In this document: positions 14,091 through 60,147 of the stretch, piece by piece
Layout: every line of letters begins with the position of its first letter
Numbering within the stretch: the first letter of the stretch is position 1
Source: an uncultured candidatus Brocadiaceae bacterium
GTDB lineage: Bacteria; Planctomycetota; UBA1135; UBA2386
DNA length: 64,000 bases
Reading direction: 5' to 3'
Assembly (NCBI GenBank): GCA_964418595.1
Contig: CAYQMF010000015.1
Location: 5,756 to 69,755, forward strand
Notes under the pieces: generated by a model
What the model was told of the DNA's origin: nothing
The model's input: the letters and a program-made list of their open reading frames with translations, nothing else
The model's database searches: none
Program-made: the position numbers and the translations under genes

Positions 14091-14219
14091 GCTTCCCACC
14101 ACGTCTCGGCATCTCGTCTCCCCCGGGTACGGCGACCTGCGCGGGTTACCGCGTCCCGCCCGCCTGATATGAAGGTCGAGGCGCGCGTTCCTCGGTGCCC
14201 GACTCTCTCCCCGCTGCCC

Positions 14220-17200
14220 ATGCGTGAGACCAATCGCCGGTTCTCCCTTCTCCTCCTGACCCTGCTCCCGCTCACCGCCGGCTGCGGCGGCGGTGGTGGG
14301 AACGCTCCGGGCTTGGGCGCTGGCGGCACCACCGCGGTGCTGGCGGTGGAGTACGGCTCGCTGGTGGACGTGTACGGCTTCCGCCGCACGGCGGCAGGGG
14401 GCTTTGGCACCGCGCTGGTGGCGCAAGACGTGCTCATCGGGGCCGACATCGTGGACGAGCGCGATGGCGCGAATCGCAACAAGCGCGACAACGAGATCCT
14501 CTACGACTTCCTCGCCGCCAACCCCGACAACCTGCAGCCGCGTCTGCTGATCACGCGCGAGATCGGCACCCCCGAGTTCGAGCGCGCGTTCGATGCGCTC
14601 GACGACCGGGTGCGGCGCGTGGGTCCCGGCCGGTTCGGGCAGGACACGACCCAGTCGCCGTTCACCGTGGTTCCGCGCAACGGCGCGATCCGGGTCACGT
14701 TCACGCGCGACCTCGGCATCGACACCTCGTTCTTCTACGAGATGCAGAACGGGCAGATCGTCGGCGTGAAGAACAGCGAGGCGATCCAGGTGCTGCGCAT
14801 CGTCGGCGATCCCAACGACGCGAACACGACGGGGGACTTCGAGGTCATCCCGGCGCGGTTCGTGCCACGCGGTGCACAGCTCATCATCGACCCGGTCCTC
14901 CTCGGCAGCGAGGGCGTCCGGCTGCAGGTGCGGAACCAGGCCGGCGGACTTCCGGAGGCGGCGGACCAGGTCGGGGCCAACATCCGTCTCGCGTTCGCGA
15001 TCGAGGGACCGCTGGGGATCCCGTCGCTGCGGCGCGACGACGAGGCCCAGCTCACCGGGCTCAACAACGGCGGCAGCAAGAGCGTGATCCGCGACTTCCG
15101 CTCCGGCAACTCGCTCGACGACACCGCCGAGATCTCGCGTGGGTTCCGGCGTGACCCGGTGCCGCCGCGCCTCGTCGGCGAGATGTTGATGTACCTGGAG
15201 CGCGTCGAGGATGTGGACGCCTTCACCCAGTTGCTGACCATCTACAAGGGCAGCGTCGCGCATCGGATCGACGCGGGCGACGCGCTGCGCATCGTGAGTG
15301 CCGACGGCTTGGCGACGCAGTTGGCGGTGACGGAGATCGTGGCCGATCCGCGCGATCGCAAGGAGCTCACTCACACGCTCGTGCTGGTGCGCCGTGAGCC
15401 GGCGCTCGCGGCGGCCGACCCGGCGAAGATGCCGGGGTACCCGGCAGATCGGGTCGAGCGTGAACAGTGGTTGCCACAGTTCGCCCCGCGTGCGGTCGTC
15501 GTGGCCGAGTACGAGTCCGGGGACGGTGGTGCCGGCAGCGACGACCCGCAGTACTTCGTGCGCTTCTCGCCATCGCCCATCGCCGGCGCCGGTGGGGCGC
15601 AGGTGCCCAACCGCGACATCTCACCGTTCGCGGCGGTGATCGTCCGGTTCAGCAAGCCGATCGATATCCACTCGGTGCGCGCCCAGGACAGCTTGTTCTT
15701 CGCGACCAAGCCGCTGACCGGCACGCGTGGCGAGGAAGCCATCCAGCAGTTCCTCACCGACAGCGTGATGGATCCTGCGTCGTTCGACCGGAACAAGTTC
15801 GTCACACCCCATCTGGTGGTGGGACGACGCTTCGACGAGGACGGGTCGCAGACGACCGTGCGCCTGCAACCGCCGCTCGGCTTCTACCTGGACGACGAAC
15901 TGCGGCTGCCGCAGAACGAGGCGTTCCGGACCTACTACCTGCACATCCTCGGTGGGCAGAAGGGCATCAAGGACCTCGCCGGCAACGAACTCGACTTCCT
16001 GGCCGATGCCGGCCGCCTGCAGGACTCGATCCTCGTCGACTTCACCCTGGACGTGCGGAACGATGCGCGCGGCCAGCCGCTCTTCCCGAACAACCGGGTC
16101 GTCAACGTCGCGCGCCGCTTCGAGGCGATCGACGAGGACGAGCAGCCGTCCTACTACCGTTCGGACGAGATCCGACGCGTCGGCGGTCAGGCGAACGACA
16201 AGGCCTACCCGCTCGAAGACTTGTTCGGCGCCGTCAACTACTTCGCCGGGCGGATCCACGCGCGGCCCAGTGCGCGCATCTCGCGCGTGGCCGACGACCT
16301 CAACCAGCAGCCGCCGCCGTCGCAGGACAGCGAGTTGCGCTGGTGCCCGGAGTCGGACGGCGGCGAGGCGCAGATCGCCGCGAACACGGCGGGGACCAAG
16401 TTCGGCCAGCCGATCCAGAACCCGCTCAACCCGTACGGTTGTCGTCTCATGACCGTGTGGCGTGAGATCGATCTCAACCTCTCGCGCGTCGACCCGTTCG
16501 ACTTCAACCTCGATCTCGAGGAGGTGCACTGGGCGCCGCACACGAACAGCACGCTGGTGTTCGACGAGTTCGACCGCATGAGCCTCTTCGTGGGGCACTC
16601 GGAGTACCGGGCCGAGAACTGCGTCGGCACCCAGTGGGCGTTGCCGTACGCGATCGAGAGCTCCGGCCTCGACCCCACCTTCGCCAGGAACTTCGCACGC
16701 GACACGGACACCCGCGGCGCACCGGAGCCGGCCGGTCCCCGCAACCCGCCGGAGCACGTTGGCTATCGCGACCACTACGTGGTGATCGACGCGAACCTCG
16801 CGTTCACGGAGCCCAACAACGTCAACCGGTTCCACCCGCTGCCGCCGCTCGAGAAGCCCTACTTCGTATGGCGCGACGAGACCCTGGACGTGCAGGGTGG
16901 CGTGAGCCGGCACAGCGCGGATGTCGCCAACGGCAGCCGTGACTGGGAACCGTACATCATCTCGCCCTTCCTCACCGGCGGCGGCCGCTTCGTGACGCGC
17001 ACCTCCAACGGCCAGTTGAGCTTCAACTACGGCCGCTGGATGAACACGCGGAACTTCCACCTCCGCAGCCGGACGACCGTCGAGACCATCACCGACGGGC
17101 TCGTTGGCGCGATCGCGCTGCCGCTGCTCGGCGACTTCCAGATGTACCCCGACGCGGCGAACTTGCCGGAGGGTCGCGGCTACGTGGCGTCCGGCGCGAA

Positions 17201-18038
17201 CGGCTGGCAGATCGCGCTTACCGTCACGTCGTCGTCGGTGCCGTATTTCCGGGTCTACTCTGCGGGCGGCGTCGCCAACGGCCAGATCCGCCGCGTGACC
17301 CCGGGCTCGTCGCAGTGGAGCCGGGCGAGCGGCGGCATCAATCCGGTCACCGGGCAGCCGACCGCCTTCGGCGACAACTCCTTCTACTGGATCCAGACCG
17401 ACTTCCTGAAGCGGCAGTCGGTGGTGACCGCGGGGTTCGTCGATCTGCTCGACCCGCACCGCGTCGATCCGGCCTTCCCCAACCGTGATCCACGCCTCGG
17501 CCCGTACTTCCCGGCGGGTGCGACGAGCGTGATGCCGCGCGGCACGGCGCCGATGTTCACCACGCTCTTCGAGCCGTCGCTCGACTCGCTGCCGGGCGGG
17601 ACGGAGATCGTGCCGCAGTACCGCGGTGCGAGCATCGTCGACCCGCGGCCGTGGATCGCCGTCGAGTGCGCGTTCCCGTTCTGGACGCGGCGCAACCAGG
17701 TGCGGCCCGACAACCTCAACTTCCCGCTCGATCCGCGCAAGGCGGGGGATGCCGGCATCCGCAAGTACAGCGACCAGTTCAACGCGAGCAACCAGGCGCG
17801 CAACTTCTGGACGCACACCTACAACCTGCACGTCACCGACTACGTGGACGATCCCAATCGTCTGGCGGAGGACGGTTTCCTCGCCAGGTTCGCGGGTCCG
17901 GCCGACTCCTTCCGCGCCAACGAAGTGCGCTACGCCAACTGGCGCTTCATCATGAAGAACAACGTCGAGTCGACGCCGCCGGTGGCACCGAGCCTCGAGT
18001 CGTTCGCGCTGCTGTATCGCTTCCAGGAAACGCGCTGA
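14220..18038 (+). CDS. very large lipoprotein of unknown function (about 1270 aa) with Ig-like (SbsA_Ig/Big-type) segments
   Basis: Lipobox 'LLLLTLLPLTAGCGGGGG' at an internal ATG. Segments such as 'IRVTFTRDLGIDTSFF' and 'VIVRFSKPIDIHSVRAQDSLFFA' resemble bacterial Ig-like domains. Normal composition over 3.8 kb. Confidence 0.7.
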   Translation: MRETNRRFSLLLLTLLPLTAGCGGGGGNAPGLGAGGTTAVLAVEYGSLVDVYGFRRTAAGGFGTALVAQDVLIGADIVDERDGANRNKRDNEILYDFLAANPDNLQPRLLITREIGTPEFERAFDALDDRVRRVGPGRFGQDTTQSPFTVVPRNGAIRVTFTRDLGIDTSFFYEMQNGQIVGVKNSEAIQVLRIVGDPNDANTTGDFEVIPARFVPRGAQLIIDPVLLGSEGVRLQVRNQAGGLPEAADQVGANIRLAFAIEGPLGIPSLRRDDEAQLTGLNNGGSKSVIRDFRSGNSLDDTAEISRGFRRDPVPPRLVGEMLMYLERVEDVDAFTQLLTIYKGSVAHRIDAGDALRIVSADGLATQLAVTEIVADPRDRKELTHTLVLVRREPALAAADPAKMPGYPADRVEREQWLPQFAPRAVVVAEYESGDGGAGSDDPQYFVRFSPSPIAGAGGAQVPNRDISPFAAVIVRFSKPIDIHSVRAQDSLFFATKPLTGTRGEEAIQQFLTDSVMDPASFDRNKFVTPHLVVGRRFDEDGSQTTVRLQPPLGFYLDDELRLPQNEAFRTYYLHILGGQKGIKDLAGNELDFLADAGRLQDSILVDFTLDVRNDARGQPLFPNNRVVNVARRFEAIDEDEQPSYYRSDEIRRVGGQANDKAYPLEDLFGAVNYFAGRIHARPSARISRVADDLNQQPPPSQDSELRWCPESDGGEAQIAANTAGTKFGQPIQNPLNPYGCRLMTVWREIDLNLSRVDPFDFNLDLEEVHWAPHTNSTLVFDEFDRMSLFVGHSEYRAENCVGTQWALPYAIESSGLDPTFARNFARDTDTRGAPEPAGPRNPPEHVGYRDHYVVIDANLAFTEPNNVNRFHPLPPLEKPYFVWRDETLDVQGGVSRHSADVANGSRDWEPYIISPFLTGGGRFVTRTSNGQLSFNYGRWMNTRNFHLRSRTTVETITDGLVGAIALPLLGDFQMYPDAANLPEGRGYVASGANGWQIALTVTSSSVPYFRVYSAGGVANGQIRRVTPGSSQWSRASGGINPVTGQPTAFGDNSFYWIQTDFLKRQSVVTAGFVDLLDPHRVDPAFPNRDPRLGPYFPAGATSVMPRGTAPMFTTLFEPSLDSLPGGTEIVPQYRGASIVDPRPWIAVECAFPFWTRRNQVRPDNLNFPLDPRKAGDAGIRKYSDQFNASNQARNFWTHTYNLHVTDYVDDPNRLAEDGFLARFAGPADSFRANEVRYANWRFIMKNNVESTPPVAPSLESFALLYRFQETR

Positions 18039-18047
18039 CCGACCCGT

Positions 18048-19490
18048 TCAGAAGGGGAGGTCTTCGGCGGCCACGGGCTCCGCGCGCGGCGTGATGCGCT
18101 GGTCGGCAGACCAGGAGTCGAACTCGAGGGCAAACGGATCGCCGAGCAGGCGCCAGCGGCCCGTTGTAGGCTCGTAGACCCCGCCCCAGTCCACGCGCAG
18201 GCCGGGCATGCCGCCGTGGGCCGCCAGGAAGCGCGCGCGGGCGCGGGCGCGCGTCGCCACCGGCGGGACCCACCGTTCGGTCTCGGTGCCGGCGGCCATC
18301 GGTGCGCCGACGCGGTGCTCGATGAGGCCTGACCCGACCATCGTGTCGAACACGCTCGTCGGATCGGTGATCGCGTGGTAGCTGTGGTCGATGAGGGTGA
18401 GCGCACGGAGACGCTGCGCGTCGCCCGGCAGCGTCGCCCAACTGCCGCCCATGTGCGTGAGCACGGAGTCGAACAGGCGCAGCTTGGCGAACGCGTCGAG
18501 CCGCCGGGCGAGCCACGGCTCGTCACCGCGCTGCATGGCGGCGAGGGTGTCCGCCCAGTCCTGCAGGCAGCGCGCGACCCACGGCGGCGCGTCGCGGCGG
18601 CGATCGGCCCACGCCCGCGCGAGGCCGAGGTACAGCGCCTGGATCTCGAGCACGATGCCGTGCACGCGCACCGCTTCGCCCGGGCCAGCGAGGCGACAGC
18701 ACGTGCGCAGGGTCTCCGCCCAGCTTCCGCCCAACGGCAGGCCGAGCCGTGCGCACGCAGCGGCGACCGCGGCCGGCACGCTCGGGTCGGCTTCGAGCGC
18801 GCGCAGCACCAGCGCGGTGGCCCCGTGCTGCAGCGCGAGGTTGAACTGCGATCGATGCCCGTCGCCGACCAGCAGGTGGCAGCGGTGGTAGCTGCGCTTG
18901 CCGGGCGTGTGGTGTTCTTCGCGGGCGGTGCTGAAGACGGCGCGGGCCGCGGTCGTCCCGCCTCCCGCGTCGTGGGTCATGAACAGGGGCCGCGTCGCCG
19001 CGAGCCGTTCGCCGCTGGGGAACAGCACGCCGCCGGAGCCGGCGTAGATGCGCGTGGCGAGGAACGGCAGCATGGCCGCGCCCAGGGTCGCGGCCGGTCG
19101 CGTCAGCAGGTAGTTCTCGTGCGTGCCCCACGTGTGCGCCTGCGGATGCAGGACGCCGTCGTGGTTGTTGGCGTGCAGTGACAGCACCAGACCATCGGCT
19201 GCGAGTTCGCGCACGGCGCGGGCGAGCAGCCCGACCTGCGCTTCGACCAGGAGCGCCAGCTCGTACGGATCGCTGCACTCCAGCGCCGCCAGCTCCGGGT
19301 GATCGTTGACGTCGACGTAGACTCGCCCGTAGGCGTTGAAGAACCCGCGGCCCACGTCCGGGAGCGAAGGCGCGTACGTCGCCATCAGGTCCAGCAGCCG
19401 CCGCAGCGCGGCAGGGCGTGGACCCGCCTGCACGAAGCACATCAGCTCGTGCTCCACACTCAGGAGGAACCTGGATCCGGGATCGGCCAT
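18048..19490 (-). CDS. Pup-ligase/deamidase family protein (PafA/Dop homologue, canonical motifs)
   Basis: Ordered family motifs: 'LLSVEHELMCF' (E-x-E), 'NAYGRVYVDVNDHPELAALEC', 'HTWGTHENYLL', 'LPFLATRIYAGSGGV', 'HRCHLLVGDGH'. Confidence 0.85.
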   Translation of the reverse strand: MADPGSRFLLSVEHELMCFVQAGPRPAALRRLLDLMATYAPSLPDVGRGFFNAYGRVYVDVNDHPELAALECSDPYELALLVEAQVGLLARAVRELAADGLVLSLHANNHDGVLHPQAHTWGTHENYLLTRPAATLGAAMLPFLATRIYAGSGGVLFPSGERLAATRPLFMTHDAGGGTTAARAVFSTAREEHHTPGKRSYHRCHLLVGDGHRSQFNLALQHGATALVLRALEADPSVPAAVAAACARLGLPLGGSWAETLRTCCRLAGPGEAVRVHGIVLEIQALYLGLARAWADRRRDAPPWVARCLQDWADTLAAMQRGDEPWLARRLDAFAKLRLFDSVLTHMGGSWATLPGDAQRLRALTLIDHSYHAITDPTSVFDTMVGSGLIEHRVGAPMAAGTETERWVPPVATRARARARFLAAHGGMPGLRVDWGGVYEPTTGRWRLLGDPFALEFDSWSADQRITPRAEPVAAEDLPF

Positions 19491-19498
19491 GGCTTCGC

Positions 19499-19702
19499 CT
19501 ACTGGCCGCTCGCGTTGCGGCGCGCGTTGAGTTCGCGCTCGACATCGACGCCGCTGACGCAGCGCTCGTGCGCCTGCTGCGCGATGGCATCGAGCGCTCG
19601 CACCTGCCGGAGCAGGCCCCCGGGTACCGGGGGCTCGGGATCGTGGTTGGCGGTCGTCGTCTGGGGACGCCGTTCGGCGCTGCGCTTGCGTTCGTCACTC
19701 AT
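19499..19702 (-). CDS. Pup/UBact-like small modifier (67 aa, C-terminal Gly-Gln)
   Basis: Fills the gap between the two ligase paralogues exactly (8-nt overlap upstream, 8-nt gap downstream). High GC3 codon usage. Polar, probably disordered N-terminus, helical C-half, and terminus '...ELNARRNASGQ*'. Confidence 0.7.
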   Translation of the reverse strand: MSDERKRSAERRPQTTTANHDPEPPVPGGLLRQVRALDAIAQQAHERCVSGVDVERELNARRNASGQ

Positions 19703-21359
19703 GGTGGGTTCCTCGCGTGGGTCGGGTCCGTGGGCTGCAGCAGGTCTCGCTCGGGCGCGACAGCTCGGGCCGGAGATCCTGCAAGGGGTGCGTCGTGTGC
19801 ACGGTGTCGTCCGCGTCGCTCAGGGACGCGAGGTCCATGACCTCGCGGGCGGCACCCAGCGCGTGCTCTGCCACCGCGCGACCGAGCCGGCCGGGGTGCG
19901 GCATGTCGACGCGGAGCCGGCGACCGAATCGCTCGTCGGTCAGGCTCAGCTCGACGTGGTCCCAGTCGACCGCCTCGATGTCGTCGGCGAAGCGCTTGAT
20001 GAGGCGGCCGCGCGTCCAGCTCCGACTCGCCTCCGGCCCATCGCGCAGGCACGCATCGATCTGCGCCCGGTCGATCAGCGGGTCGATGCGATCGTGTTCG
20101 AGCAGGCGCCAGATCGCGCCACGCGTCGGGTCGGTGTTGGTGAAGTCGTGGTCGAGCAGGCGCACGGCCGACGACTCGAGGCCTTCGCCCGTCCGCTCGC
20201 AGTGGCCGAGCAGGACCATGAGCTTGGCGGCCCAGTCGAGGTGGCGCGAGCACGCGGCGATGTCGCCGCGATCGGCGCGCTGCGCCAGCTCGACGATGCG
20301 GGGCAGGAGCTGCGCGGCGCAGGGCGCCACCGCGTCCTGGATCACGCCCTCCTCGACGAGGCGCAGCATCGCCTGCGCGATCTCGGCGACGTAGGCGCCG
20401 AGCGTCACCTGGCGACCGTCGGCGAGCGGCGCCGTCCCGCGCAACCGGCCGGACTCGAGGTCGAGCCCGAGGCTCCACGCACGCAGCGCCTCGACGGGCG
20501 AGGCGAGCAGGAGCTGGCCGTAGCCGACCTCGGCGGCGGCGAGGCAGCACTGCACGAAGCTCGTCATCAGCGCGCTCGAGACGAGGGCGAAGTCGAAGCC
20601 GATGAGGTGCAGCCGGTCGATGCCCTGCGCGTGCGGCTCGCGGCGGGCGTTGAGCAGGCCGCGCGAGAACGCCTCCGTCGTCGACAGCCCGCACACCCGC
20701 GACAGGTGGTGGGCGCGCGCGCTGAGGCTGAAGACCACCGAACCGTCGCGCAGCGGGAGCAGGTAGCCGCTGCCGAAGAACGGGACGGCGGCGGCGATCG
20801 CACTGGTGACGAAGCCGAGCACGCCTGGGTGACGCGGATCGACGATGAGGTCGTCGAAGAGCTGCGGTGCGATCGAGATGTTGAAGTGCGAGCCCCACGA
20901 GATCGACGGATCGAGGAGGTCGACGTTGGCGGCCGTCAGCAGGTAGCGCGTGCCCGCCTCGGCGTCTTCCTGGGCCTGCTGCCGCGCCGCCTCCGCGACG
21001 ACCAGCGTGCTCCAGCTCTGCGCGGCCACTTCGCACGGGCGATGCGTCTCCGCCGTGCACACCTCGACGTGCGCCATGTCGGAGTAGTAGCACTGGCCAT
21101 TCGACGGCCACTGGCGCAGGCAGTCGGTGGAACTCGCCGACGCGTACGACCCGCCCCAGTGGTCGCCCCGGCTCCAGCTCGAATCGCGCCGCGTGCGGCG
21201 TCGCCAGACGTTGCCTCCGACCCGCACGAAGGCCGTGTCGATGGCCCCGAGCACGCGTTGCGCCACGGTCCAGCTCGGGATCGCCTGGCCTCGGCCGTCG
21301 ATGCCGGTCGTCGACAGCTCGCAGTCGCGACCGACGAACTTCACGACGGGCGCGCTCAT
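19695..21359 (-). CDS. Pup-ligase/deamidase family protein (larger, divergent Dop-like paralogue)
   Basis: 'FVGRDCELST', 'NGQCYYSDMAHVEVCTAE', 'ISWGSHFNISI' (in place of HENY), 'VPFFGSGYLL', 'FSLSARAHHLSRVCGLSTTEAFSRGLLNARREPHA', 'DRLHLIGFDF'. Only the last 554 codons of the 802-aa track ORF are protein-like. The ATG overlaps the upstream stop (ATGA). Confidence 0.8.
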   Translation of the reverse strand: MSAPVVKFVGRDCELSTTGIDGRGQAIPSWTVAQRVLGAIDTAFVRVGGNVWRRRTRRDSSWSRGDHWGGSYASASSTDCLRQWPSNGQCYYSDMAHVEVCTAETHRPCEVAAQSWSTLVVAEAARQQAQEDAEAGTRYLLTAANVDLLDPSISWGSHFNISIAPQLFDDLIVDPRHPGVLGFVTSAIAAAVPFFGSGYLLPLRDGSVVFSLSARAHHLSRVCGLSTTEAFSRGLLNARREPHAQGIDRLHLIGFDFALVSSALMTSFVQCCLAAAEVGYGQLLLASPVEALRAWSLGLDLESGRLRGTAPLADGRQVTLGAYVAEIAQAMLRLVEEGVIQDAVAPCAAQLLPRIVELAQRADRGDIAACSRHLDWAAKLMVLLGHCERTGEGLESSAVRLLDHDFTNTDPTRGAIWRLLEHDRIDPLIDRAQIDACLRDGPEASRSWTRGRLIKRFADDIEAVDWDHVELSLTDERFGRRLRVDMPHPGRLGRAVAEHALGAAREVMDLASLSDADDTVHTTHPLQDLRPELSRPSETCCSPRTRPTRGTHHE

Positions 21360-23152
21360 GCGTGTTCTCCCGCTGCACGGTCTCCCACGGCCCGTTCTCC
21401 CACCACAGGCCCGACGAGATCGCGTTGCCAGCCGACTTCGTCGCGCGGCACGGTCTCGACGCGCTGGATGCGGCCGCGGACCCGCAGCAGGCGCTGCAGC
21501 GTGATCCAGTCGGCCTCCATCGCGCTCGCGGCTGCGCAGGCCTGATCGACGAGACCGGCGACGACGTCGTCGAGGCCGACTGCGCCGAAGCCGATGCCGC
21601 TGCGGCGGCGCCGCGCGCCGCGCAGCTTGGCCTGGCTCATCGCTTCGCGGTAGTGCACCGCGGACAGCAGCGTGCCCGCGGTGACGTCGATGCTGCGCTG
21701 CGGCTCGGTGCCGTAGCGCAGCACGACGGTGTCCAGGATGGTCGCAAGCGCGGGCCGCAGGATCGTGGCCTCGAGCACCGCGGGGGCGACGCCGTGGCGC
21801 ACGTCGCCATCGATCAGCCAGGGCACCTCGGCGGGCGCGTACACGGCCATGACCTTCGCCGCGGCCTCGGCGCCGAGCGGCGGCATCTCGAGGACGAGGT
21901 CGCCGAGGCGACCGGGCCGCTTCAGCGCCGGATCGACGGCGTCGGGGCGGTTGGTGAGGCCGAGCCACAGCACATGGGCGCGCGGCGTGGCCTCGGTGCG
22001 GACGAGCCCGTCCAGTTCGACGAGCAGGGCCTGGATCGCGTCGTTGTGCGCGCTGGACAGGAGCTCGCCGCCGTCGTGGCCCCCGGCACGCCGACCGAGG
22101 CAATCAATTTCGTCCATGACCACGATTTGGACGATGGGGCGCGTGCGCGGCACCGCCTGGCGCGCGCGGATGCTCCCGCACAGGTCTTCGCGCACGAGGC
22201 GCGCATCCTCGCCGTGCCACATCGACTTGAGCTCGTTGGGCTTGACCACGTAGAGCACGACGTCGAAGCCGCGCGTCGCACCGACGTCGCGCAGCCACGT
22301 GGCGACGAGACGCGTGAGCAGGGTCTTGCCCTCACCGGGCTTGAGCGACCACAGCAGCACGCCGTGCAGGGGTTCGAGGGCGAACTCGCCGCGGACGTCG
22401 TCCGCGAGGAGCCGCAACTCGATGGCCTCGAGCAGCGGTTCGAGCACGGGCTCGAGGCCGGCGACGTCCTCGGCGTCGACGGCGACGGAATCGATGCCGA
22501 CCTCGAAGCGGCTGTTGCTGCTGATGCTCGCCGCGCGCGCGATGGCCCAACCGGGCGCCTCACGGCTGAGGACGAGCCGGTCGCCGGGCCGCAGTGGTTC
22601 GTCGCGAAGGCACCGTGCGATCTGCACGATGTCTTCCTGCCCACCGACGCGGGCGACATGCACCTGCTCGCGCCCATCCGCATGCCAGCCGCGCATCTCG
22701 ACGACTTCGCCCAGGGCCCGCGCGCGCGCGCCGGCGTCGTCGGCGACGCCGATCAGCACCTGCTCCTTGGTGTGCACGCGCACCGGCTCCCAGGGTTCGA
22801 GGTCGCGGAGGCGGGCGATGTCGACTTCCGGGTGGATCGCGAGTTCGAGCACGTCGCCGCGCCAGCGCACCCGGGCGGCCGGGCCCTGCGGCGTGGTCAG
22901 CAAGCCCTCGCACACGCACAGCGCCGCCGGTCCGCGGAGCATGCCCTCGAGGATCTCGCGCATCTCCTTCGCCGCGGCCGCGGCCTGTTCGCACTCACGC
23001 CGGGCGCGCAGCCACCGCGCCGCGACGGTGACCGGATCCTGCGCGGCCTCCTGGAGGACGGTCTCGATCTCCTGGATCTGCGCGGGCGTCACGCGATCGA
23101 GGCGCACGCCGGCGAGGCGCAGGAGTTGGACGATGGTCTGTTGGTTGCTCAT
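21356..23152 (-). CDS. AAA+ ATPase, proteasomal-ATPase (Mpa/ARC/PAN)-like architecture
   Basis: N-terminal helical/coiled-coil region 'RECEQAAAAAKEMREILEGML'. Two OB-like segments ('ARVRWRGDVLELAIHPEV..', 'GEVVEMRGWHADGREQVHVARVGGQEDIVQIA..PLRPGDRLVL'). Walker A variant 'LKPGEGKTLL', Walker B 'IVVMDEID', 'KRPGRLGD'. Confidence 0.85.
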   Translation of the reverse strand: MSNQQTIVQLLRLAGVRLDRVTPAQIQEIETVLQEAAQDPVTVAARWLRARRECEQAAAAAKEMREILEGMLRGPAALCVCEGLLTTPQGPAARVRWRGDVLELAIHPEVDIARLRDLEPWEPVRVHTKEQVLIGVADDAGARARALGEVVEMRGWHADGREQVHVARVGGQEDIVQIARCLRDEPLRPGDRLVLSREAPGWAIARAASISSNSRFEVGIDSVAVDAEDVAGLEPVLEPLLEAIELRLLADDVRGEFALEPLHGVLLWSLKPGEGKTLLTRLVATWLRDVGATRGFDVVLYVVKPNELKSMWHGEDARLVREDLCGSIRARQAVPRTRPIVQIVVMDEIDCLGRRAGGHDGGELLSSAHNDAIQALLVELDGLVRTEATPRAHVLWLGLTNRPDAVDPALKRPGRLGDLVLEMPPLGAEAAAKVMAVYAPAEVPWLIDGDVRHGVAPAVLEATILRPALATILDTVVLRYGTEPQRSIDVTAGTLLSAVHYREAMSQAKLRGARRRRSGIGFGAVGLDDVVAGLVDQACAAASAMEADWITLQRLLRVRGRIQRVETVPRDEVGWQRDLVGPVVGERAVGDRAAGEHA

Positions 23153-23175: not shown

Positions 23176-24201
23176 TCAGTCGGAGAAGCTCAGCCAGGGG
23201 ATCGAGGCCATGCGTCCGCCGCGCCACGCATGCACGGCGAGCACGGGACGTCTGCCGGGTGCGCCGAAGCGGCGGCCGGCGATGGGGAACACGGTGGTCT
23301 TGCTCGGGAACATGGCCTCGAGCACCTGGTAGTCGTCGAGCGACACGTGCTCGCAGCTCGGCAGTGCGCACTCGGCCTTCTGGTTGCAGTTGCCGCAGTC
23401 CTTGCCCCATCCGTGGCTGTGGAACACGGTGAGCGGCCGCTCGCCGCGGCCACGCAGCGCGGCCAGCTCGCCGGCTTCGGCCATTGCCTCGGGGTCGAAC
23501 TGGAGGCTGGCGAACGATCCGACGTGTCGGGTGTCGCCGAGCGCCTCCGACAAGACGGTGACGATGCGGGTGCGCGTGCCCGGCAGCGGTTCGCTCAGCC
23601 GCAGGAGCGTGCCCAGCACGCAGCCACCGATCTCCGCCGAGCCGGCGGCCTCGGTGCGATCGACGATGTCAGCGACGGCCCGGGCGCACATGAGCACCGG
23701 GCGGTCCGCGGCGAGTCCGCCGTCGCCGAGCGAGACGACCCCGAGGTCCTGTAGCGTGCCGTCGCGCACCAGCAGCGGCAGCAGGCGGGGCGGACGGGGC
23801 GTTGCCGGACCGGGCGTGGCGGTGAGCACCGTGTGCACGCGCTGGCCGGCCGACACTTGGATCTGCCGCGCCTGCAGCATCGTCGACATGCGGCGATCCC
23901 AGCGACCGGCGTCGAAGCGCTGCGCGTGCTCCGCACCGCTCGCCGCCGTCACGGTCACGTCGAGGCCGAGCACGCGCTCGCCCGCCGCAGAGACCGGTTC
24001 GATGGCGATGCGCACCGGCTCGGGCTCGGTGGGCAGCACATCGGCGAGGACGCCGCTGGTCCAGGCCTCTTCGGCGACGTCGGTGATGTCGTCGGTCACC
24101 GGGAACCAGGCCAGCGCCTCGCCCCCGGTCGCCTCGGTGCGCAGCTCCACGGCGAACTGGTGGCGGCAGGACAGCTCGACCTCGACGGCGATGGCGCTCA
24201 T
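23176..24201 (-). CDS. JAB/MPN (JAMM) metallopeptidase domain protein with N-terminal unknown domain
   Basis: JAMM elements in order: 'AEIGGCVLG' (Glu), 'TVFHSHGW' (HxH), 'VSLDDYQ' (S..D). A Cys-rich insert 'CGNCNQKAECALPSCEH' lies between them. The ATG overlaps the Ubl stop (ATGA). Confidence 0.8.
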   Translation of the reverse strand: MSAIAVEVELSCRHQFAVELRTEATGGEALAWFPVTDDITDVAEEAWTSGVLADVLPTEPEPVRIAIEPVSAAGERVLGLDVTVTAASGAEHAQRFDAGRWDRRMSTMLQARQIQVSAGQRVHTVLTATPGPATPRPPRLLPLLVRDGTLQDLGVVSLGDGGLAADRPVLMCARAVADIVDRTEAAGSAEIGGCVLGTLLRLSEPLPGTRTRIVTVLSEALGDTRHVGSFASLQFDPEAMAEAGELAALRGRGERPLTVFHSHGWGKDCGNCNQKAECALPSCEHVSLDDYQVLEAMFPSKTTVFPIAGRRFGAPGRRPVLAVHAWRGGRMASIPWLSFSD

Positions 24202-24461
24202 GGCCTTCCCGCCGAGACCTCCGGCAGGACGGTCCAGCGCGCGTCGTCCGCGGGGACCTCGTGCAGCAGGCTCTTGTTGTCGAGGCGGCGGCCGCGGCTG
24301 AAGGCCAGCCAGCGCAGGCCGTGGTCGGGGATGTCGAGCTCGCTGCGGAAGAACTCGATCGCCTGGCCGACGGTGTGGTCGGGCGTGAGGTCGTCGCCGA
24401 CGACGGCGCGCACGCGCTTCTGCTGGCTGAGGTCGGTCATCTCGATGGTGGCGGTGGTCAT
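24198..24461 (-). CDS. ubiquitin-like (beta-grasp) small protein, 87 aa
   Basis: The size, its position between the E2 side and JAB, and a C-terminal half 'LAFSRGRRLDNKSLLHEVPADDARWTVLPEVSAG-RP' that aligns ungapped by eye with ubiquitin '[34 protein letters not shown]'. Confidence 0.6.
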   Translation of the reverse strand: MTTATIEMTDLSQQKRVRAVVGDDLTPDHTVGQAIEFFRSELDIPDHGLRWLAFSRGRRLDNKSLLHEVPADDARWTVLPEVSAGRP

Positions 24462-25270
24462 GACGTTGCGTCTCCTTGGTTGGGGTCGTGGTGGATCGGC
24501 GCGTGGCCGAGGATGGCACGCGCGTACCGCGCGCGGAGATCCGCGTCTCCGCACAGCAACTGCAGCGAGGGCGCGGCGTGCTGGGCGAAGGCGGCGATGG
24601 CGCGCACCGTGCGCGCCAGGAAGGCGGGGGTGACGTCGAGCGCGTCGAGGCGAGCCTCGGCGTGCAGCTCGTGGCCGTGCCGGTCGCTCGCCTGCAGGGC
24701 GAGGCGCGCGAAGCGCACGCGGCCGTTGACGCGCAGCGCCTGGTCGGCCGCGGCGTCGCGGGCGGCGTCGGTCGGCCACGACGTGATCAGCCGGTGGGTG
24801 AGGCGGAGGCCGGTGCCGTCGGGATCGATCGTCACCGGCCGCACGAGACCGTCCAGGCTCACCCGCACCTCGACGCCGCGCGCACGGGCCGCGATCGCGT
24901 CCGGTTCGAACCGGCCGGCGCGCAGCAGGGCCCCGAGCGCATCGGGGTCGCAGCTCGTGGCGGCGCCGGTGTCGGCAGTGAGGGGACGCGCACTCGCGGC
25001 GACCGCGAGCGCGTCCACGAGCGTCTCGGCGCGGCCGCGCGGACCCGGCGGCAGGTCGGCCACGATCCAATGGCTCGCGGTGAACGCGGCGACGCGCGCG
25101 TTCCCGGGCAGGCAGGCGGTGTGCAGGAGCAGCGACGTCGGATCCGGGCCCGGCATGCCGCGCGGATCGAGGGCGAGTTCGATCGCGTACCCGCCATCGA
25201 GCGTCGGCGTGATGCGCGGCCCCGGCGCATGACGACGGCGCCGCGGCGTGCTGACGGTGGGGGTGGTCAC
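24458..25270 (-). CDS. hypothetical protein (270 aa), possible YbjN/CesT-chaperone-like C-terminal half
   Basis: GTG start overlaps the E2 stop (GTGA) and its stop overlaps the Ubl ATG (ATGA). Normal composition. The pattern 'ALRVNGRVRFARLALQASDRHGHELHAEARLDALDVTPAFLARTVRAIAAFAQ' resembles chaperone-like alpha/beta folds (weak, by eye). Confidence 0.55.
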   Translation of the reverse strand: MTTPTVSTPRRRRHAPGPRITPTLDGGYAIELALDPRGMPGPDPTSLLLHTACLPGNARVAAFTASHWIVADLPPGPRGRAETLVDALAVAASARPLTADTGAATSCDPDALGALLRAGRFEPDAIAARARGVEVRVSLDGLVRPVTIDPDGTGLRLTHRLITSWPTDAARDAAADQALRVNGRVRFARLALQASDRHGHELHAEARLDALDVTPAFLARTVRAIAAFAQHAAPSLQLLCGDADLRARYARAILGHAPIHHDPNQGDATS

Positions 25271-25857
25271 GCGGCCCCCTTGCCCCACAGGGGCGTGGCG
25301 GCCGGCAGCGCGGCGAGGGCTTCGCGGCCTTCGGCGAACCACTCCGCCGCGTCGTGATCGGCGGGGTCGACGGTGCTGACGTTGGCGTAGGTGAGGATCG
25401 AATAGATGTGCTCGAGGAGCGTGGTCAGCTGCATCGGGCCGCGCGGCAGCGCCCCCAGGCACAGGATCCCGAACAGGCGCGAGTAGTTGGGGTGCAGGAG
25501 CCCGGTGTCCCTCCCGATCAGCACGCACACCGACGGCTGGTCGAGGCCGGCCTCGAACGGATCGGCGCGGTAGACGATGGTGCCGCGCAGGGGACCTGCG
25601 GCGACGTCGACGCCTTCGCCGGGGCGGTGCTGGCGCAGGTAGGGGATCGCGAGCGTGAAGTCGAGGACACGCCGTGCGGGCAGGTGCGGCTCGATGCGCA
25701 GCTTCGGCGCGCCGCTGAGCAGCGGCTGGGCCGCGTCCCAGTTGCCCGCGAAGAACTCGGCAGCGAGCTGGGTGATGGGCGCGTCGGCTTCGGTGGACGG
25801 CTCCAGGAGAGAGAGCCGCCGCAGGAGGTCGGCGAGGTCGGGCGTCTGGTCGGTCAT
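25267..25857 (-). CDS. E2 (UBC-fold) ubiquitin-conjugating-enzyme-like protein
   Basis: 'DTGLLHPNYSRLFGILCLGALPRG' carries the HPN triad, with a Cys 9 residues after the Asn as in eukaryotic E2s. The ATG overlaps the E1 stop (ATGA). Confidence 0.7.
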   Translation of the reverse strand: MTDQTPDLADLLRRLSLLEPSTEADAPITQLAAEFFAGNWDAAQPLLSGAPKLRIEPHLPARRVLDFTLAIPYLRQHRPGEGVDVAAGPLRGTIVYRADPFEAGLDQPSVCVLIGRDTGLLHPNYSRLFGILCLGALPRGPMQLTTLLEHIYSILTYANVSTVDPADHDAAEWFAEGREALAALPAATPLWGKGAA

Positions 25858-27080
25858 TCGAGAAGGCCTCGTTGGGCAAAGGGCGTGTGCGCAGGGCGGA
25901 GCAGGAGATCGGTGCGCGTTGCGCCGGCGCGGGCGACGACCAGGGCGCCGTCGGGGATGCCGAGCGCGGCGAGGGGCGCATCGAGGATCCGCAGGTGCGC
26001 CGCTTGCGCGGCGCCGATCGACGCGAGCAGGGCGTCGCGCCGCCAGTACATCGCTCGGCCGCAGCGCGGGCAGGCCGGCGGGGTCGACCACACGCACGCG
26101 GGCTGCACGACACCGCTGCCGCAGGAGCAGGCGGCAGCCAGCGCCAGCGGAGCGGCGAGCGGAGTCAGGGTCGGGTCCGGCGCGCGCAGGAGGTCGCGCG
26201 CCTTGGCGAACAACCCGCGCAGGGTGATCTCCGCCGTGGTCGACGCGAGCGCGACCGCGGTGATCGGCGCATGGTCGCCGAGGCAACGGGCGCTGCGCGC
26301 CAGCGCGAGCGTGTGCAGCACGCCGCCGGTGAGGTCGAGGAGGGTCTCGTGGTCGAGCGCCCGCTCGCGGTCGCGGCCGCCGACCAACCGTTGCGCCTGC
26401 AGCAGACCGAGGCCGACGACGGCCAGCGTCGTCGCCATGCCGGCCAGCGTCGGCGCGCGGCCTTCCGCGCCATCGTCGGCGCGGCCGCCGGGACAAGGCG
26501 TCGGTGGTCCGCCGACGAGGTCTTCGACGCCGTACGAGCAGAGCTGGCAGGCGTGGCCGCCCCCGCCGTGCGACACGAGGACGCGGCCCATCTCGCGCGT
26601 ACCCGTGCCATCGACGGCCAGCCGGACCAGCGGGATCGCGGCGGCGTTGGAGATCGACGTCAGGTGCCGAGCGAGGCCGCCGGCGTCGGTGCAGTCCACG
26701 ATCAGATCGCAGGCGGCGAGCACGCCGTAGCCGACGCCACGCACGTCGATCGGGAGCGCGAAGGCCCGGCCGGGCTCGATCGCGTCGCACGCGTCGACCA
26801 CGGCGTCGACCTTGCGGCGTCCCACCGCCGCGATGGGGACGGCCTGTGTGCCGACGTTGTGGGCCTCGACCCGATCCGCATCGATCGCGAGCACCACCGC
26901 GCCGCTGCGCACGACCGCCAGCGCGAAGTGCGAGCCCAGCGCCCCGGCGCCGATGATCGCGATGCGTGCCGTGCGCCAGCGAGCGAACGGATCGCCCGTG
27001 AGCAGTGAGGTGCCACGCACCCGCGCCAGGCGGTCGCTCGCGGGTGCGGCCACGGGCATGGCGTGCAGCTCAGCGCGCAT
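25854..27080 (-). CDS. ThiF/MoeB/E1-like adenylyltransferase (ubiquitin-activating-enzyme-like)
   Basis: 'ARIAIIGAGALGSHFALAVVRSGAVVLAIDADRVEAHNVGTQ' (Rossmann GxGxxG plus DxD..N), 'DLIVDCTD', and Cys pairs 'CQLC' and 'CPRC'. The ATG at 27080 overlaps the upstream stop by 11 nt (alternative ATG at 27059). Confidence 0.85.
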   Translation of the reverse strand: MRAELHAMPVAAPASDRLARVRGTSLLTGDPFARWRTARIAIIGAGALGSHFALAVVRSGAVVLAIDADRVEAHNVGTQAVPIAAVGRRKVDAVVDACDAIEPGRAFALPIDVRGVGYGVLAACDLIVDCTDAGGLARHLTSISNAAAIPLVRLAVDGTGTREMGRVLVSHGGGGHACQLCSYGVEDLVGGPPTPCPGGRADDGAEGRAPTLAGMATTLAVVGLGLLQAQRLVGGRDRERALDHETLLDLTGGVLHTLALARSARCLGDHAPITAVALASTTAEITLRGLFAKARDLLRAPDPTLTPLAAPLALAAACSCGSGVVQPACVWSTPPACPRCGRAMYWRRDALLASIGAAQAAHLRILDAPLAALGIPDGALVVARAGATRTDLLLRPAHTPFAQRGLLE

Positions 27081-27663
27081 CGCGGCCCTCCTTCGCCATC
27101 GCCAGCAACTCGGCGAGGCGCGGGCCACCGCGGCGTGCCGGCGGGCGCCAGCGACGGGCGCGCGGGTCGAACCCGCACTGGTGGCAACGCAAGGTCGGCC
27201 GCCACGCGGTGCGCTTGAACATGCCCGCGCACGGCGTCGTCGGCGTGCCGGGGCAGACCACGATCGGCTCGCCCGCGGCGAGTCGCGTCCGCGTGCGCAG
27301 GCAACGCTGGTCGTCGCCGTGCTGCGCCGGATCGTAGGTCGTCTCCACGGGTTCCGTGTCGGCCGAGACCCACGTCGGGTGGCCGCCCATGTCGATGCGA
27401 TCGCCGTGCCGCAGGACGTGCAGCCCGATGCCCGCCGGCGTGCCGTTGATCGTCACGCCGCCGCCGAGGTCAGCCGGCACGAGGAGCGCACCGACGGTGC
27501 GCCCGCGGCGGGCGGCGAACACGGTCGCGTGGTGCGCCGCGTCCTGCGGGTCTTGGACCGCGACGCCGGTGGCGGCGATACCGACGATGCGACCGACGAC
27601 CTGCTCCGTGCCGCCGTCGCCGTACCAGAGCGTGACCTGCGTGATCGGAGTTTGCGGGTTCAT
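27070..27663 (-). CDS. FHA-domain protein with C-terminal Cys-rich zinc-ribbon-like segment
   Basis: FHA-like 'VVGR...AAHHATVFAARRG...LLVPADLGGGVTINGTP...HVLRHGDRIDMGG'. C-terminal 'CLRTRTRLAAGEPIVVCPGTPTTPCAGMFKRTAWRPTLRCHQCGF'. The ATG overlaps the upstream stop (ATGA). Confidence 0.65.
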   Translation of the reverse strand: MNPQTPITQVTLWYGDGGTEQVVGRIVGIAATGVAVQDPQDAAHHATVFAARRGRTVGALLVPADLGGGVTINGTPAGIGLHVLRHGDRIDMGGHPTWVSADTEPVETTYDPAQHGDDQRCLRTRTRLAAGEPIVVCPGTPTTPCAGMFKRTAWRPTLRCHQCGFDPRARRWRPPARRGGPRLAELLAMAKEGRDAR

Positions 27664-28259
27664 GGGGTGGCCTCGTCGGTGGAGTAGCCCTTCAACCGCG
27701 CGCGCACCGCGTCTGCCAGAGACGGGTCGGCGAGCGCCTTCACGTACCGATCCACGTACGCCTGCAAGATCGGCGACATCGGCACCTGCCCGAGCCCGGG
27801 CACGCGCAGCGTCGCCGCGAGCCGGCCACCCTGTCGCTGCTGCACGAGGGGCGCGACGGAGTGGCCCGGCCACGCCCTCGCTGCCGCACGCGCGATCTTG
27901 GCGTTGAGGGTACGGATGTACGTGCCGACGCCTTCCGCATGGATCGGCACGGAGTGGCCGTCGAGGATCGCGAGCAGCGCGGCGAGCCCAGCCAGAGTCG
28001 GGCGGCCGCGGCGCCAACTCGGCCGTGGGTCGCTGGCGCGCGGGGTGACCGCGTCGGTGATCTCGACGAACAGCAACGCCAGCAGCAGGCGGGTGCAGCG
28101 CGCCGGGATCGCGACGCGCAGCGGCGGGCGTGGCTCGGTGGCGTGCACTTCCAGTTCGCCGCGACCGTCGTCGTCGATGCGCAGCGTGTAGGAGATCGGC
28201 GGAGTTGACGGCGAACGCGGGTCGGCGGAGCGTTTCATCGTGAGGATGAAGGTCCGCAC
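27660..28259 (-). CDS. hypothetical protein, possible OmpR/PhoB-type winged-helix (Trans_reg_C-like)
   Basis: First gene of the operon. 'LRVAIPARCTRLLLALLFVE....VGTYIRTLNAKIARAA' resembles the winged-helix recognition pattern (by eye only). An alternative start is ATG at 28238. Confidence 0.5.
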   Translation of the reverse strand: MRTFILTMKRSADPRSPSTPPISYTLRIDDDGRGELEVHATEPRPPLRVAIPARCTRLLLALLFVEITDAVTPRASDPRPSWRRGRPTLAGLAALLAILDGHSVPIHAEGVGTYIRTLNAKIARAAARAWPGHSVAPLVQQRQGGRLAATLRVPGLGQVPMSPILQAYVDRYVKALADPSLADAVRARLKGYSTDEATP

Positions 28260-29697: not shown

Positions 29698-29847
29698 GGC
29701 CGAGGCTCATGGGCCGCGAGGTTTTTCGAGATCGGATTGGATGATCGGCCTCCTGACGGCGCTATGGCGCCGGCACGATTGCGCGGGGCTTCCCCGACGC
29801 CTCGCAGGCACCTAGGATCGGCCACCCCTCGTTCCAGGAAGGACAGC

Positions 29848-36418: not shown

Positions 36419-36655
36419 GTGGACTCCGGAGAGGAGCGATGGGGGGCTGAGGGGAGAGATGGCTTCGCGGACCGAAGTGGTCGGCGAGCGCGCGGCAACA
36501 ATCCGGTCGCTTGCCCTCCCCGTCAACGCCCGGCGAACGATCGGGCATACGCCCGCGCGGGCCGAGGGACGGCGGCCCGAGGCAGCGTTCTTCCTCGCCG
36601 TACGGCTGACCGCGGTGCGGTCGGGAGATTCGGCTGCTGCGGTGGAACGGATCCG

Positions 36656-40587: not shown

Positions 40588-40657
40588 CGCGGGCGGTTGT
40601 ACCCGGGCCGCGACAGCGGTCGTAGGCGATTCGTCGGGTGCCGAGTCCGGGCGCCGA

Positions 40658-46061: not shown

Positions 46062-46188
46062 CGCCACCGACCGCCATGTGTCCCGCGGCGAGACGGCGTC
46101 GGGGCTCGGCGAACAGTGTCCCGCCGATCGTGACGACACAGGCGAGGAGCCGGCGCGCGGTGGCGCCGGCGGTCCAGGGAAACCCACC

Positions 46189-59887: not shown

Positions 59888-60147
59888 GGGTGGGATTCGA
59901 ACAGAGCGTGCGCCGAACGCCTACGGGGCAGATGCGGGCTCGATCGCAGGCGGTGGGACCGTGGTGGGAGGGGAATGGCTTGCTTCCTGTGGGGGCCGTT
60001 GGCGGCGACCATCCTCGTGAACCTCGCTCCGGTCGCCGACCTCGATGCCGAGCTGGTGCAGGCCGAGTTGGCGAAGGCGCTGTCGCGCTGAAGAACCGCG
60101 TACCTCCGGGTCGCCCGCCCGCCGCCGGCTCGCTAGCCTTCGGCGCC

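Follow-up and report, generated by a model that had tools for sequence, protein, structure and literature searches.

In a 64,000-nucleotide stretch of DNA from an uncultured candidatus Brocadiaceae bacterium (GenBank assembly GCA_964418595.1, contig CAYQMF010000015.1, positions 5,756 to 69,755 of the forward strand; hereafter the window), four minus-strand genes at 18048-23152 encode an AAA+ ATPase, a Dop-like enzyme, a Pup-like modifier and a PafA-like ligase. They belong to a larger conserved operon, and on balance we favour the reading that this operon is a self-contained ten-gene cassette that combines two protein-tagging chemistries with one proteasomal-type unfoldase and has no dedicated 20S protease.

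The content and order AAA+/Dop-like/Pup-like/PafA-like, proposed in the initial annotation, were borne out by Pfam and NCBIfam matches, and the labels Mpa-like, Dop-like, Pup-like and PafA-like were upheld by model scores, motifs and C-termini. The genes at 18048-23152 are thus real, but this span is only the 3' half of a transcription unit that extends to 27663, or to 28238 in the window genome, where an additional open reading frame (ORF), ORF K, is included. Upstream of the four genes lie six further genes on the same strand, and the whole cassette of about 9.6 kb codes for ten soluble proteins. Read from 5' to 3' (cassette coordinates, including those of motifs given below, are on the minus strand throughout), it starts with an FHA-like/zinc protein (27070-27663, 197 aa, weak PF00498 match), followed by a ThiF-type ubiquitin-activating enzyme (E1; 25854-27080, 408 aa, PF00899 at 5e-16), a UBC-fold ubiquitin-conjugating enzyme (E2; 25267-25857, 196 aa, no Pfam match, HPN...Cys signature), the divergent protein G (24458-25270, 270 aa, weak TY-Chap1/YbjN match), a ubiquitin-like (Ubl) protein precursor (24198-24461, 87 aa, C-terminal SAG followed by RP) and a JAB/JAMM metalloprotease (23176-24201, 341 aa, weak PF14464 match). 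Then come the Mpa/ARC-like AAA+ ATPase (21356-23152, 598 aa, PF00004 at 1e-13), the Dop-like enzyme (19695-21359, 554 aa, PF03136 at 4.5e-45), the Pup-like modifier (19499-19702, 67 aa, ending in NASGQ) and the PafA-like ligase (18048-19490, 480 aa, PF03136 at 3e-49).

Neighbouring genes of the cassette either overlap by 4-11 bases or are separated by 8-23 bases (-11 to +23); for the six upstream genes, the junctions are -4 to -11 bases, plus one gap of 23 bases. Neither a sigma-70-like promoter nor a minus-strand terminator-like site was found inside the cassette, which is weak evidence for one unit. The cassette is a translationally coupled single unit, and because of the tight junctions and the recurrence in every related locus, the arrangement is far beyond chance.

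The search for homologues of the ATPase covered 5.8 billion proteins and returned a family of about 90 clusters at 40-64% identity, beyond which the scores dropped steeply to generic Cdc48/PAN/ARC matches near 100 bits. The family profile, run against 185,579 species-representative genomes, retrieved 25 family loci, every one of them titled as a metagenome-assembled genome (MAG). The hosts are mostly Planctomycetota (Pirellulales, Planctomycetaceae, Thermoguttaceae, Phycisphaerae), and three are Gemmatimonadota. When the window proteins were used as tblastn queries, the identical ten-gene order was found in all ATPase-seeded loci as far as the contigs extend. An independent search with the E2 profile yielded 46 clusters, each of about 200 aa and each labelled 'hypothetical', and the full cassette was present on three out of three new long contigs from this search (L099-L101). 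Each of the two families, ATPase and E2, is small and stands isolated. Altogether, there are at least 28 related loci, all on MAG or metagenome contigs and mainly from Planctomycetota and Gemmatimonadota, and the cassette genes are obligatorily coupled. An all-against-all comparison of the flanks of the related loci revealed no recurrent gene outside the ten, and the 81 nearest flanking ORFs match 85 different Pfam families, none of which is enriched. Because the order is conserved and the flanks are unrelated, the cassette is a rare self-contained module in unrelated contexts.

Some individual loci have features of their own. In a Pirellulales MAG, an IS110-family transposase gene (L001 15885-16859) lies about 650 bp downstream of the cassette. 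Two loci, L013 and L014, were both binned in the MAG Thermoguttaceae SPRUCE 536 and have ATPases that are 70.6% identical; they are either true paralogous copies or the product of a mixed bin. Genes for Ser/Thr kinases or phosphatases (Metallophos, SpoIIE) are found a few genes away from several cassettes (L009 1174-3951, L027 15325-18162, L099 4464-7250 and 3008-3871, L100 19952-20597). This linkage is intriguing given the FHA-like product of the first cassette gene, but it is inconsistent, and these phyla are kinase-rich.

The best NCBIfam model for the ATPase was pup_AAA (TIGR03689; 115.5 bits, below the equivalog cut-off of 504.75), and a weak match to the proteasomal-ATPase OB domain was also found. 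An AlphaFold2 model built with an alignment of 58 homologues had a predicted local distance difference test (pLDDT) score of 90.7. It comprises N-terminal helices/coiled coil (residues 2-72, including a long helix at 40-72), two beta-rich OB-like domains (76-136 and 147-207), the AAA module (about 234-440), a C-terminal domain (445-580) and a disordered tail (582-598). The top 30 PDB matches of this model in Foldseek were all M. tuberculosis Mpa (E values from 1e-28 to 1e-22, about 515 aligned columns, 23% identity), with Rpt subunits ranking next, and the AAA module alone was nearest by sequence to VAT/Cdc48 D2. The predicted structure shows an Mpa/ARC architecture for the ATPase, that is, a coiled coil, two OB-like domains, one classic-clade AAA module and a C-terminal domain.

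The Walker A motif had been described as atypical (LKPGEGKT), and the window protein does read WSLKPGEGKT. The variant motif S269-L-K-P-G-E-G-K276-T277 (22322-22348) is family-wide: in the residue alignment to VAT, S269 occupies the position of the first Gly and one residue is inserted. The first Gly is replaced in 58 of 58 homologues, by variable residues after an invariant Ser, and motif search matches gave the consensus S-x-[KQR]-[PA]-G-x-G-K-[TS] with the one-residue insertion in 57 of them. While the P-loop is thus unusual, it is no hint of inactivity, being a conserved family signature in proteins that retain the catalytic residues. G273, K276, the Walker B residues D347 and E348 (22109-22114), sensor-1 N401, the arginine fingers R412 and R415 (21908-21919) and G314 are invariant in the 58 homologues, and T277 and H313 are at least 90% conserved. 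Pore loop 1, W312-H313-G314 (22211-22219), aligns to the aromatic-hydrophobic-Gly loop of VAT/Cdc48. Since the Lys/Thr pair, the Walker B Asp-Glu, the sensor Asn, the arginine fingers and the Trp-His-Gly pore loop have been kept, the ATPase is probably active. One could argue from the missing first Gly, which no member has in its canonical form, that the protein is a degenerate non-catalytic scaffold; but the variant Walker A is itself conserved with S269 invariant, and the Walker B Glu, sensor 1, both arginine fingers and the pore loop have survived at 40% overall identity, which makes a scaffold very improbable.

In proteasomal ATPases, docking by GQYL/HbYX requires an aromatic residue in the penultimate position and the terminal carboxylate, both presented to pockets between alpha subunits (PMC8223512). 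The C-terminus of the window protein, DRAAGEHA, had been said to have no such docking motif. This proved to be correct not only for its tail (residues 582-598, ...GERAVGDRAAGEHA, 21359-21409), which is predicted to be disordered, but for the family, in which HbYX/GQYL was present in 0 of 58 members. Before 4-20 variable residues there is a conserved subterminal helix, whose motif is E-L-x-x-H-R-[YF] in the majority of members; the window clade has W-x-R-D-L. The absence of GQYL is strong but not absolute evidence against 20S binding because of the precedent of Cpa, which shows that such binding is possible without this motif (PMC8223512).

A protease for the unfoldase was sought among 4,889 six-frame ORFs of at least 50 aa from the window and 27 related loci (L001-L027, ±10 kb), using PrcA, PrcB, Thermoplasma beta, HslV and ClpP as queries in phmmer and hmmsearch, with positive controls that cross-matched. 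A first set of protease references gave nothing at E<=10 in these ORFs; this set was validated against the real Nonomuraea locus, with matches at 1e-72 and 3e-78. The real Nonomuraea PrcA and PrcB and a six-sequence hidden Markov model (HMM), run with filters off, retrieved only noise from the same ORFs, namely short off-frame fragments with E values of 0.1-9 and 4-10 bits. A Pfam scan of all window ORFs supported by G+C content at third codon positions (GC3) had no match to the proteasome family PF00227 or to ClpP, and the only peptidase that it found was a DPP-IV/S9 enzyme (57665-59920). The precomputed Pfam tables for the called genes of L001 and L099-L101 list no proteasome family. The claim that no 20S subunit is linked to the four genes therefore held in the 64-kb window and in about 28 related loci.

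These results also bear on the question of whether the cassette is one part of a split canonical Pup-proteasome system, whose ATPase would feed a 20S core (prcBA) encoded elsewhere and would dock to it by an interface other than GQYL. We consider this quite unlikely: prcBA lies within 10 kb at none of the about 28 loci, compared with dop, pup, prcB, prcA and pafA all within 12 kb in the actinobacterial reference locus of Nonomuraea (L098); none of the 58 ATPase C-termini has HbYX; and what moves between phyla is the set of ten genes, with no protease in it. What speaks for a split system is the Mpa-like fold of the ATPase, the match of the Dop-like/Pup-like/PafA-like logic and of the Gln-terminated tag to the actinobacterial pathway, and again the example of Cpa. 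In addition, Pup/UBact-proteasome clusters have reportedly been observed in some Gram-negative phyla, including Planctomycetes.

The initial annotation had inferred a possibly proteasome-independent unfoldase from a locus resembling the actinobacterial one minus prcBA. Its basis is now extended, for the lack of a linked 20S to about 28 related loci and for the lack of a docking motif to 58 family members, and the gene order is indeed the same; however, the inference was too narrow, and the comparison with a loss of prcBA is misleading because the genes represent a distinct, deeply divergent family that is always inside a ten-gene hybrid cassette.

The two ligase-fold enzymes are distant from their characterized relatives. 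The Dop-like enzyme scored 131.6 bits with the Dop model TIGR03688 (cut-off 492.3) and 85.4 bits with the PafA model, and the PafA-like ligase scored 119.1 bits with TIGR03686 (cut-off 551.3), slightly above its score with the Dop model; the HMM scores of the ATPase, the Dop-like and the PafA-like protein are all 4-5 fold below the NCBIfam equivalog cut-offs. Against PDB sequences, the Dop-like enzyme matched Dop with 96 bits and PafA with 37 bits, and the PafA-like ligase matched the two nearly equally (Dop 93 bits, PafA 90 bits). In comparison with the Nonomuraea locus L098, the Dop-like protein preferred Dop (86 versus 53 bits) and the PafA-like protein preferred PafA (103 versus 82 bits). 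Where Dop has its Dop loop, the Dop-like enzyme and Nonomuraea Dop share an insertion that is found neither in the PafA-like family nor in PafA. On the orthology of both enzymes, the pairwise scores and this shared insertion conflict with a crude neighbour-joining tree with three actinobacterial sequences, where actinobacterial Dop groups with PafA. Another candidate for a canonical Pup-proteasome reference, L062 from Thermoleophilia, was rejected, as it is actually an unrelated TPR/AAA region.

As judged by alignment, the Dop-like and PafA-like families keep the catalytic residues. The Dop-like segment Y-S-D94-M-A-H97-V-E99 aligns to the catalytic Y-V-D-H-A-H-P-E of Acidothermus Dop (4B0R), with D94, H97 and E99 invariant in 21 sequences, and an acidic pair is present near the N-terminus in R-D12-x-E14. 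In this family, R-D-x-E replaces GxExE, and H-[FL]-N replaces HEN. The PafA-like family conserves S-V-E-H-E, Y-V-D...H-P-E and WG(T/S)HENY (19 sequences). Neither enzyme has a transmembrane (TM) insertion: both are colinear with soluble Dop/PafA and have no run of TM-grade hydrophobic segments. At six loci (L010 5805-8132, L011 5522-7876, L012, where it is cut, L014 4870-7230, L022 11426-13759 and L027 11103-13397), but not in the window or at the other loci, the PafA-like protein carries a C-terminal extension of about 310 aa that is alpha-helical and weakly TPR-like and may be a substrate-recognition module.

The Pup-like modifier has 20 orthologues of 63-70 aa, always encoded between the two ligase-fold genes. 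They share a conserved C-terminal motif R-R-N-x-S-G-Q with an invariant R..N, and the sequences end in GQ (17 orthologues), GE, AQ or AE (one each). In the window, where the G+C content is about 70%, the GC3 value of this ORF is 0.85, as in coding sequence. The N-terminus looks disordered and the central segment looks amphipathic by eye. According to Iyer et al. (2008), Pup has 50-90 residues, a G-[EQ] C-terminus and a gene beside PafA (PMC2588565), and the Pup-like ORF has all of these features. At the level of sequence similarity, none of the 20 members matched the Pfam family Pup (PF05639) at E<=10, and hhalign detected no similarity to M. tuberculosis Pup (probability 0.06); the M. tuberculosis query itself matches the real Nonomuraea pup at 5e-17. 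The lack of similarity to Pup or to any Pfam family, together with the two changed motifs of the Dop-like family, could mean that the 67-aa ORF, instead of coding for a conjugated tag, encodes a regulator or is unexpressed, and that the ligase-fold enzymes act on the Ubl, on the ATPase or on a small molecule. Such an explanation appears improbable to us in view of a 63-70 aa ORF at the same position in 20 loci with the invariant R..N and a C-terminal [GA][QE], the agreement of this C-terminus with the Pup signature (PMC2588565), the coding-like GC3 value and the PafA homologue that is always adjacent.

The other half of the cassette codes for the parts of a ubiquitin-type system. The E1 has a GxGxxG nucleotide-binding motif, zinc cysteines (C178/C181 and C337/C340), an invariant crossover-loop Cys196 and a single ThiF domain, and its profile matches Uba4, Cap2 and MoeB. 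Two alignments of the E2 family, of 17 and 43 sequences, show H122 and the candidate catalytic Cys133 without exception; N124 is invariant in the smaller set and at least 90% conserved in the larger one. Searched against the PDB, the E2 profile matched only eukaryotic E2s, with HPN...C aligned, and the top 50 Foldseek matches of its AlphaFold2 model (pLDDT 89) were all eukaryotic UBC enzymes. By profile and predicted fold, the cassette E2 is therefore closer to eukaryotic E2s than to any bacterial Cap2/Bil E2 in the PDB.

The Ubl protein has the C-terminal motif W-x-V-x-P-x-V-[ST]-A-G, most commonly in the form PEVSAG, with an invariant final Ala-Gly. In the window, G85 (24207-24209) is followed by RP. 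Six of 21 orthologues end exactly at AG and the others carry 2 to about 40 unrelated residues, a pattern that points to a precursor trimmed by a peptidase. The protein also has a near-invariant Lys19 in a Q-K-[RK] motif. In the JAB protein, E190, H261-S-H263 and S287-x-x-D290 were recognized, with E190, H261, H263, S287 and D290 invariant in 21 sequences; its score with the Pfam model Prok-JAB was 18.4 bits, below the cut-off of 25, and it has a Cys-rich insert and an N-terminal domain of about 170 aa of unknown fold. PDB profile searches gave nothing useful for the JAB protein or for the FHA-like/zinc protein, the latter being without a PDB sequence match. The FHA-like/zinc protein consists of an FHA-like beta-sandwich and a C-terminal Cys-rich zinc module, with invariant C121, C137, C145, C160 and C163. 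Protein G is the fastest-evolving member of the cassette, with a mean pairwise identity of 28% compared with 56% for the Ubl, and its own homologue search found only itself. Since no Ser, Cys, His, Thr or Asp is invariant across the family alignment, protein G is unlikely to be an enzyme or a protease; it is probably an adaptor or chaperone.

This division into conserved enzymes and variable partners is one reason to ask whether the same machine could be a conflict or anti-phage system of the kind of Bil or the cyclic-oligonucleotide-based antiphage signalling system (CBASS), in which tagging and unfolding would neutralise invader proteins. The presumed specificity parts (G, FHA-like, Pup-like) evolve fastest, the E1 is recognised by the models for Cap2 and 6A-MBL, and PADLOC TRIP13 gives a weak match to the ATPase. 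The cassette is rare and patchy (about 25 loci among 185,579 species representatives, with one gene order shared by the Planctomycetota and Gemmatimonadota hosts), has unrelated flanks, stands beside an IS110 transposase in L001, and is present as two diverged copies, with 70.6% identity of the ATPases, in the bin of one MAG. Yet eight of the ten cassette proteins have no PADLOC match, the flanks show no enrichment in defence genes (PADLOC matched only two ordinary Ser/Thr kinases among the flanking ORFs), no family member was found in IMG/VR or on plasmids, and no toxic effector domain is present. We regard the defence function as possible but doubtful. The machine may serve either in regulated proteostasis or in defence against mobile elements.

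For the two-chemistry cassette that we favour, the following course of events can be proposed from homologous systems (PMC8223512; bioRxiv 10.1101/2024.11.21.623953), from which we infer it. The JAB protease would trim the tail of the Ubl to expose ...SAG, and the E1 (Cys196) and the E2 (Cys133) would conjugate the Ubl to target lysines, with the FHA-like/zinc protein and the fast-evolving protein G serving as specificity or adaptor factors. The Dop-like enzyme would deamidate the terminal Gln of the Pup-like peptide, which the PafA-like ligase would join to a lysine of either the target or the Ubl itself. Pup is known to bind to the Mpa coiled coil (PMC8223512); likewise, the coiled coils of the ATPase would bind the Pup-like helix, and threading would start from the disordered Pup-like N-terminus. 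The hexamer would then unfold or extract the tagged protein, while the JAB protein, acting as Rpn11 does, and the Dop-like enzyme would recycle the tags. The tagged protein would end up unfolded, disassembled or inactivated, with no obligatory proteolysis, as for ARC and ferritin in Corynebacterium: C. glutamicum, which has no prcBA, needs pupylation to mobilise ferritin iron, and the review reads this as degradation-independent release (PMC8223512). The earlier suggestion that the unfoldase may handle substrates tagged with Ubl or Pup agrees with the obligatory linkage of its gene to those for E1, E2, Ubl and JAB.

It is an attractive idea that the folded Ubl would give selectivity and the disordered Pup-like peptide would give the motor its initiation handle. 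In a more elaborate version, a two-tag relay, the Ubl, a beta-grasp protein, would be placed by the eukaryote-like E1-E2 cascade on a target chosen by G and the FHA-like/zinc protein, the PafA-like ligase would add the Pup-like handle, maybe on Lys19 of the Ubl, and the JAMM protease would strip the Ubl at the ATPase. The cassette would then be a 19S-like machine without a 20S core and an instance of cooperation between prokaryotic ubiquitin-type and Pup-type tagging. We put this forward tentatively and think it rather unlikely in this full form.

Several points weigh against a self-contained two-chemistry machine without a 20S protease. The negative result for protease genes covers the window and ±10 kb per locus, and prcBA, Anbu, BPH or HslV may lie elsewhere in the genomes. 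Cpa binds 20S in vitro without GQYL (PMC8223512), and the ATPase family has a conserved subterminal aromatic motif. Without detectable Pup homology, the case for the Pup-like protein as a tag consists of its size, its position and its C-terminus only. The sole apparent JAB-AAA fusion, the 972-aa protein P0085 (L083 10001-12919), would hint at physical coupling of the two proteins, but it is unreliable and probably an indel artefact: on the L083 contig, both Pup-ligase genes and apparently also the E1 gene are called as split ORFs. Which tag is attached first, and to which targets, is pure inference. Finally, every locus comes from a MAG or metagenome, and the cassette is known from sequence alone.

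Bacterial protein tagging by pupylation and that by ubiquitin-like conjugation are regarded as two independent solutions. The cassette ties the two chemistries obligately together in a single operon that also encodes an Mpa-like unfoldase and an Rpn11-type protease and has no linked proteasome. In the literature searched, we found no combination of PafA/Dop with ThiF/JAB/AAA+ operons, for which a prior description is possible, and no combination of pupylation with CBASS or Bil; the Bub/Bil papers on bacterial Ubl operon families mention no linked Pup ligase or AAA+. Hecht et al. (2020) noted 'a single copy' PafA/Dop paralogue in some Planctomycetes and used it as outgroup (PMC7947786). The operon suggests a two-tag protein-unfolding machine, composed of known kinds of parts in a new combination, that is undescribed in the searched literature. 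Early comparative-genomic surveys probably could not see the cassette, since every locus is from a MAG or a metagenome contig. If the tags cooperate, this would be the first case of cross-talk between Pup-type and ubiquitin-type chemistries, would provide a simple bacterial model for handing a Ubl-tagged folded protein to an AAA+ motor, and would place proteasomal-type ATPases as stand-alone segregases well outside Actinobacteria. An E2 with the eukaryotic HPN...Cys signature bears on the debate over the prokaryotic roots of the ubiquitin system, and a cassette this compact could be reconstituted in E. coli.

The surroundings of the cassette in the window are as follows. Upstream, ORF K (27660-28238, minus strand, 192 aa, no Pfam match) overlaps the first cassette gene by 4 bases and, having no counterpart at any of the related loci, is an addition or regulator specific to this lineage. 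Divergent from it lies a candidate regulator gene (28516-29697, plus strand), whose product has weak sub-threshold Pfam matches of the helix-turn-helix and sugar-binding-like kind; a homologue with 37% identity adjoins the cassette of the closest locus, L003 (4116-5390, minus strand), and was found nowhere else. Downstream, the convergent lipoprotein gene noted before was confirmed (14169/14220-18038, plus strand): the 1289-aa product is a predicted lipoprotein with the lipobox LTAGC, and the stop codon is 9 bp from that of the PafA-like gene. This ORF is one of four with high GC3 and no Pfam domain (693-1289 aa; 14169-18038 on the plus strand, 33899-36655 and 38590-40671 on the minus strand, 46051-49638 on the plus strand). 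The window further contains a gene for a 1032-aa protein with a C-terminal FGE-sulfatase domain (29737-32835, plus strand) and a sulfatase gene (44277-46205, minus strand). Taken with the closest cassette, which is from a Planctomycetota MAG, these two genes are compatible with a Planctomycetota-like source, though they no more than hint at it.

Among known systems, the actinobacterial Pup-proteasome shares with the cassette the order AAA+, Dop-like, small tag and PafA-like, an ATPase with coiled-coil, double-OB and AAA domains, a Gln-terminated tag that implies deamidation, and the catalytic Asp in both ligase-fold enzymes. Unlike it, the cassette has neither prcBA nor GQYL, its Walker A is a variant, its tag is not recognisably Pup, it always forms one operon with E1, E2, Ubl and JAB, and its hosts are Planctomycetota and Gemmatimonadota known from MAGs. 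Closer in outcome is the proteasome-less pupylation of Corynebacterium, where Pup-type tagging and an ARC-type unfoldase operate without 20S and lead to disassembly (PMC8223512). There, however, the situation results from a secondary loss in a canonical locus, whereas the cassette represents an independent divergent family with a second, Ubl-type tag.

The ubiquitin-type half resembles Bil (BilABCD) and the Cap2/Cap3 proteins of type II CBASS in having an E1, an E2, a JAB protease and a Ubl precursor that needs trimming, as well as in its compact operon and sporadic distribution. In Bil, separate genes for Ubl, E2, JAB and E1 make up the whole system, and the E1 has an IAD-AAD-CYS architecture (bioRxiv 10.1101/2024.11.21.623953). 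The cassette contains these four gene types, but its 408-aa E1 has a single adenylation (ThiF) domain, its E2 has the eukaryotic HPN motif and matches eukaryotic UBCs first, and six further genes, among them those for AAA+, Dop-like, Pup-like and PafA-like proteins, are obligatory. No Bil protein was present among the PDB matches of the E1 and E2 profiles.

The gene for a coiled-coil/OB/AAA unfoldase beside those for a JAMM protease and a Ubl cascade is reminiscent of the 19S particle (Rpt1-6 with Rpn11) and of Cdc48 with deubiquitinating enzymes. In contrast to these, the cassette has no 20S core, ubiquitin receptors or lid scaffold, includes an additional Pup-like tag, and links JAB and ATPase through their genes only. 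The Pup/PafA neighbourhoods of Plesiocystis and Rhodopirellula likewise represent Pup-ligase systems outside Actinobacteria to which no proteasome genes are linked (PMC2588565). Their ligases have a four-TM insertion after core strand 4 and a linked membrane protein, whereas the ligase-fold enzymes of the cassette are of the soluble type and have the AAA+ ATPase and the Ubl system as their partners.

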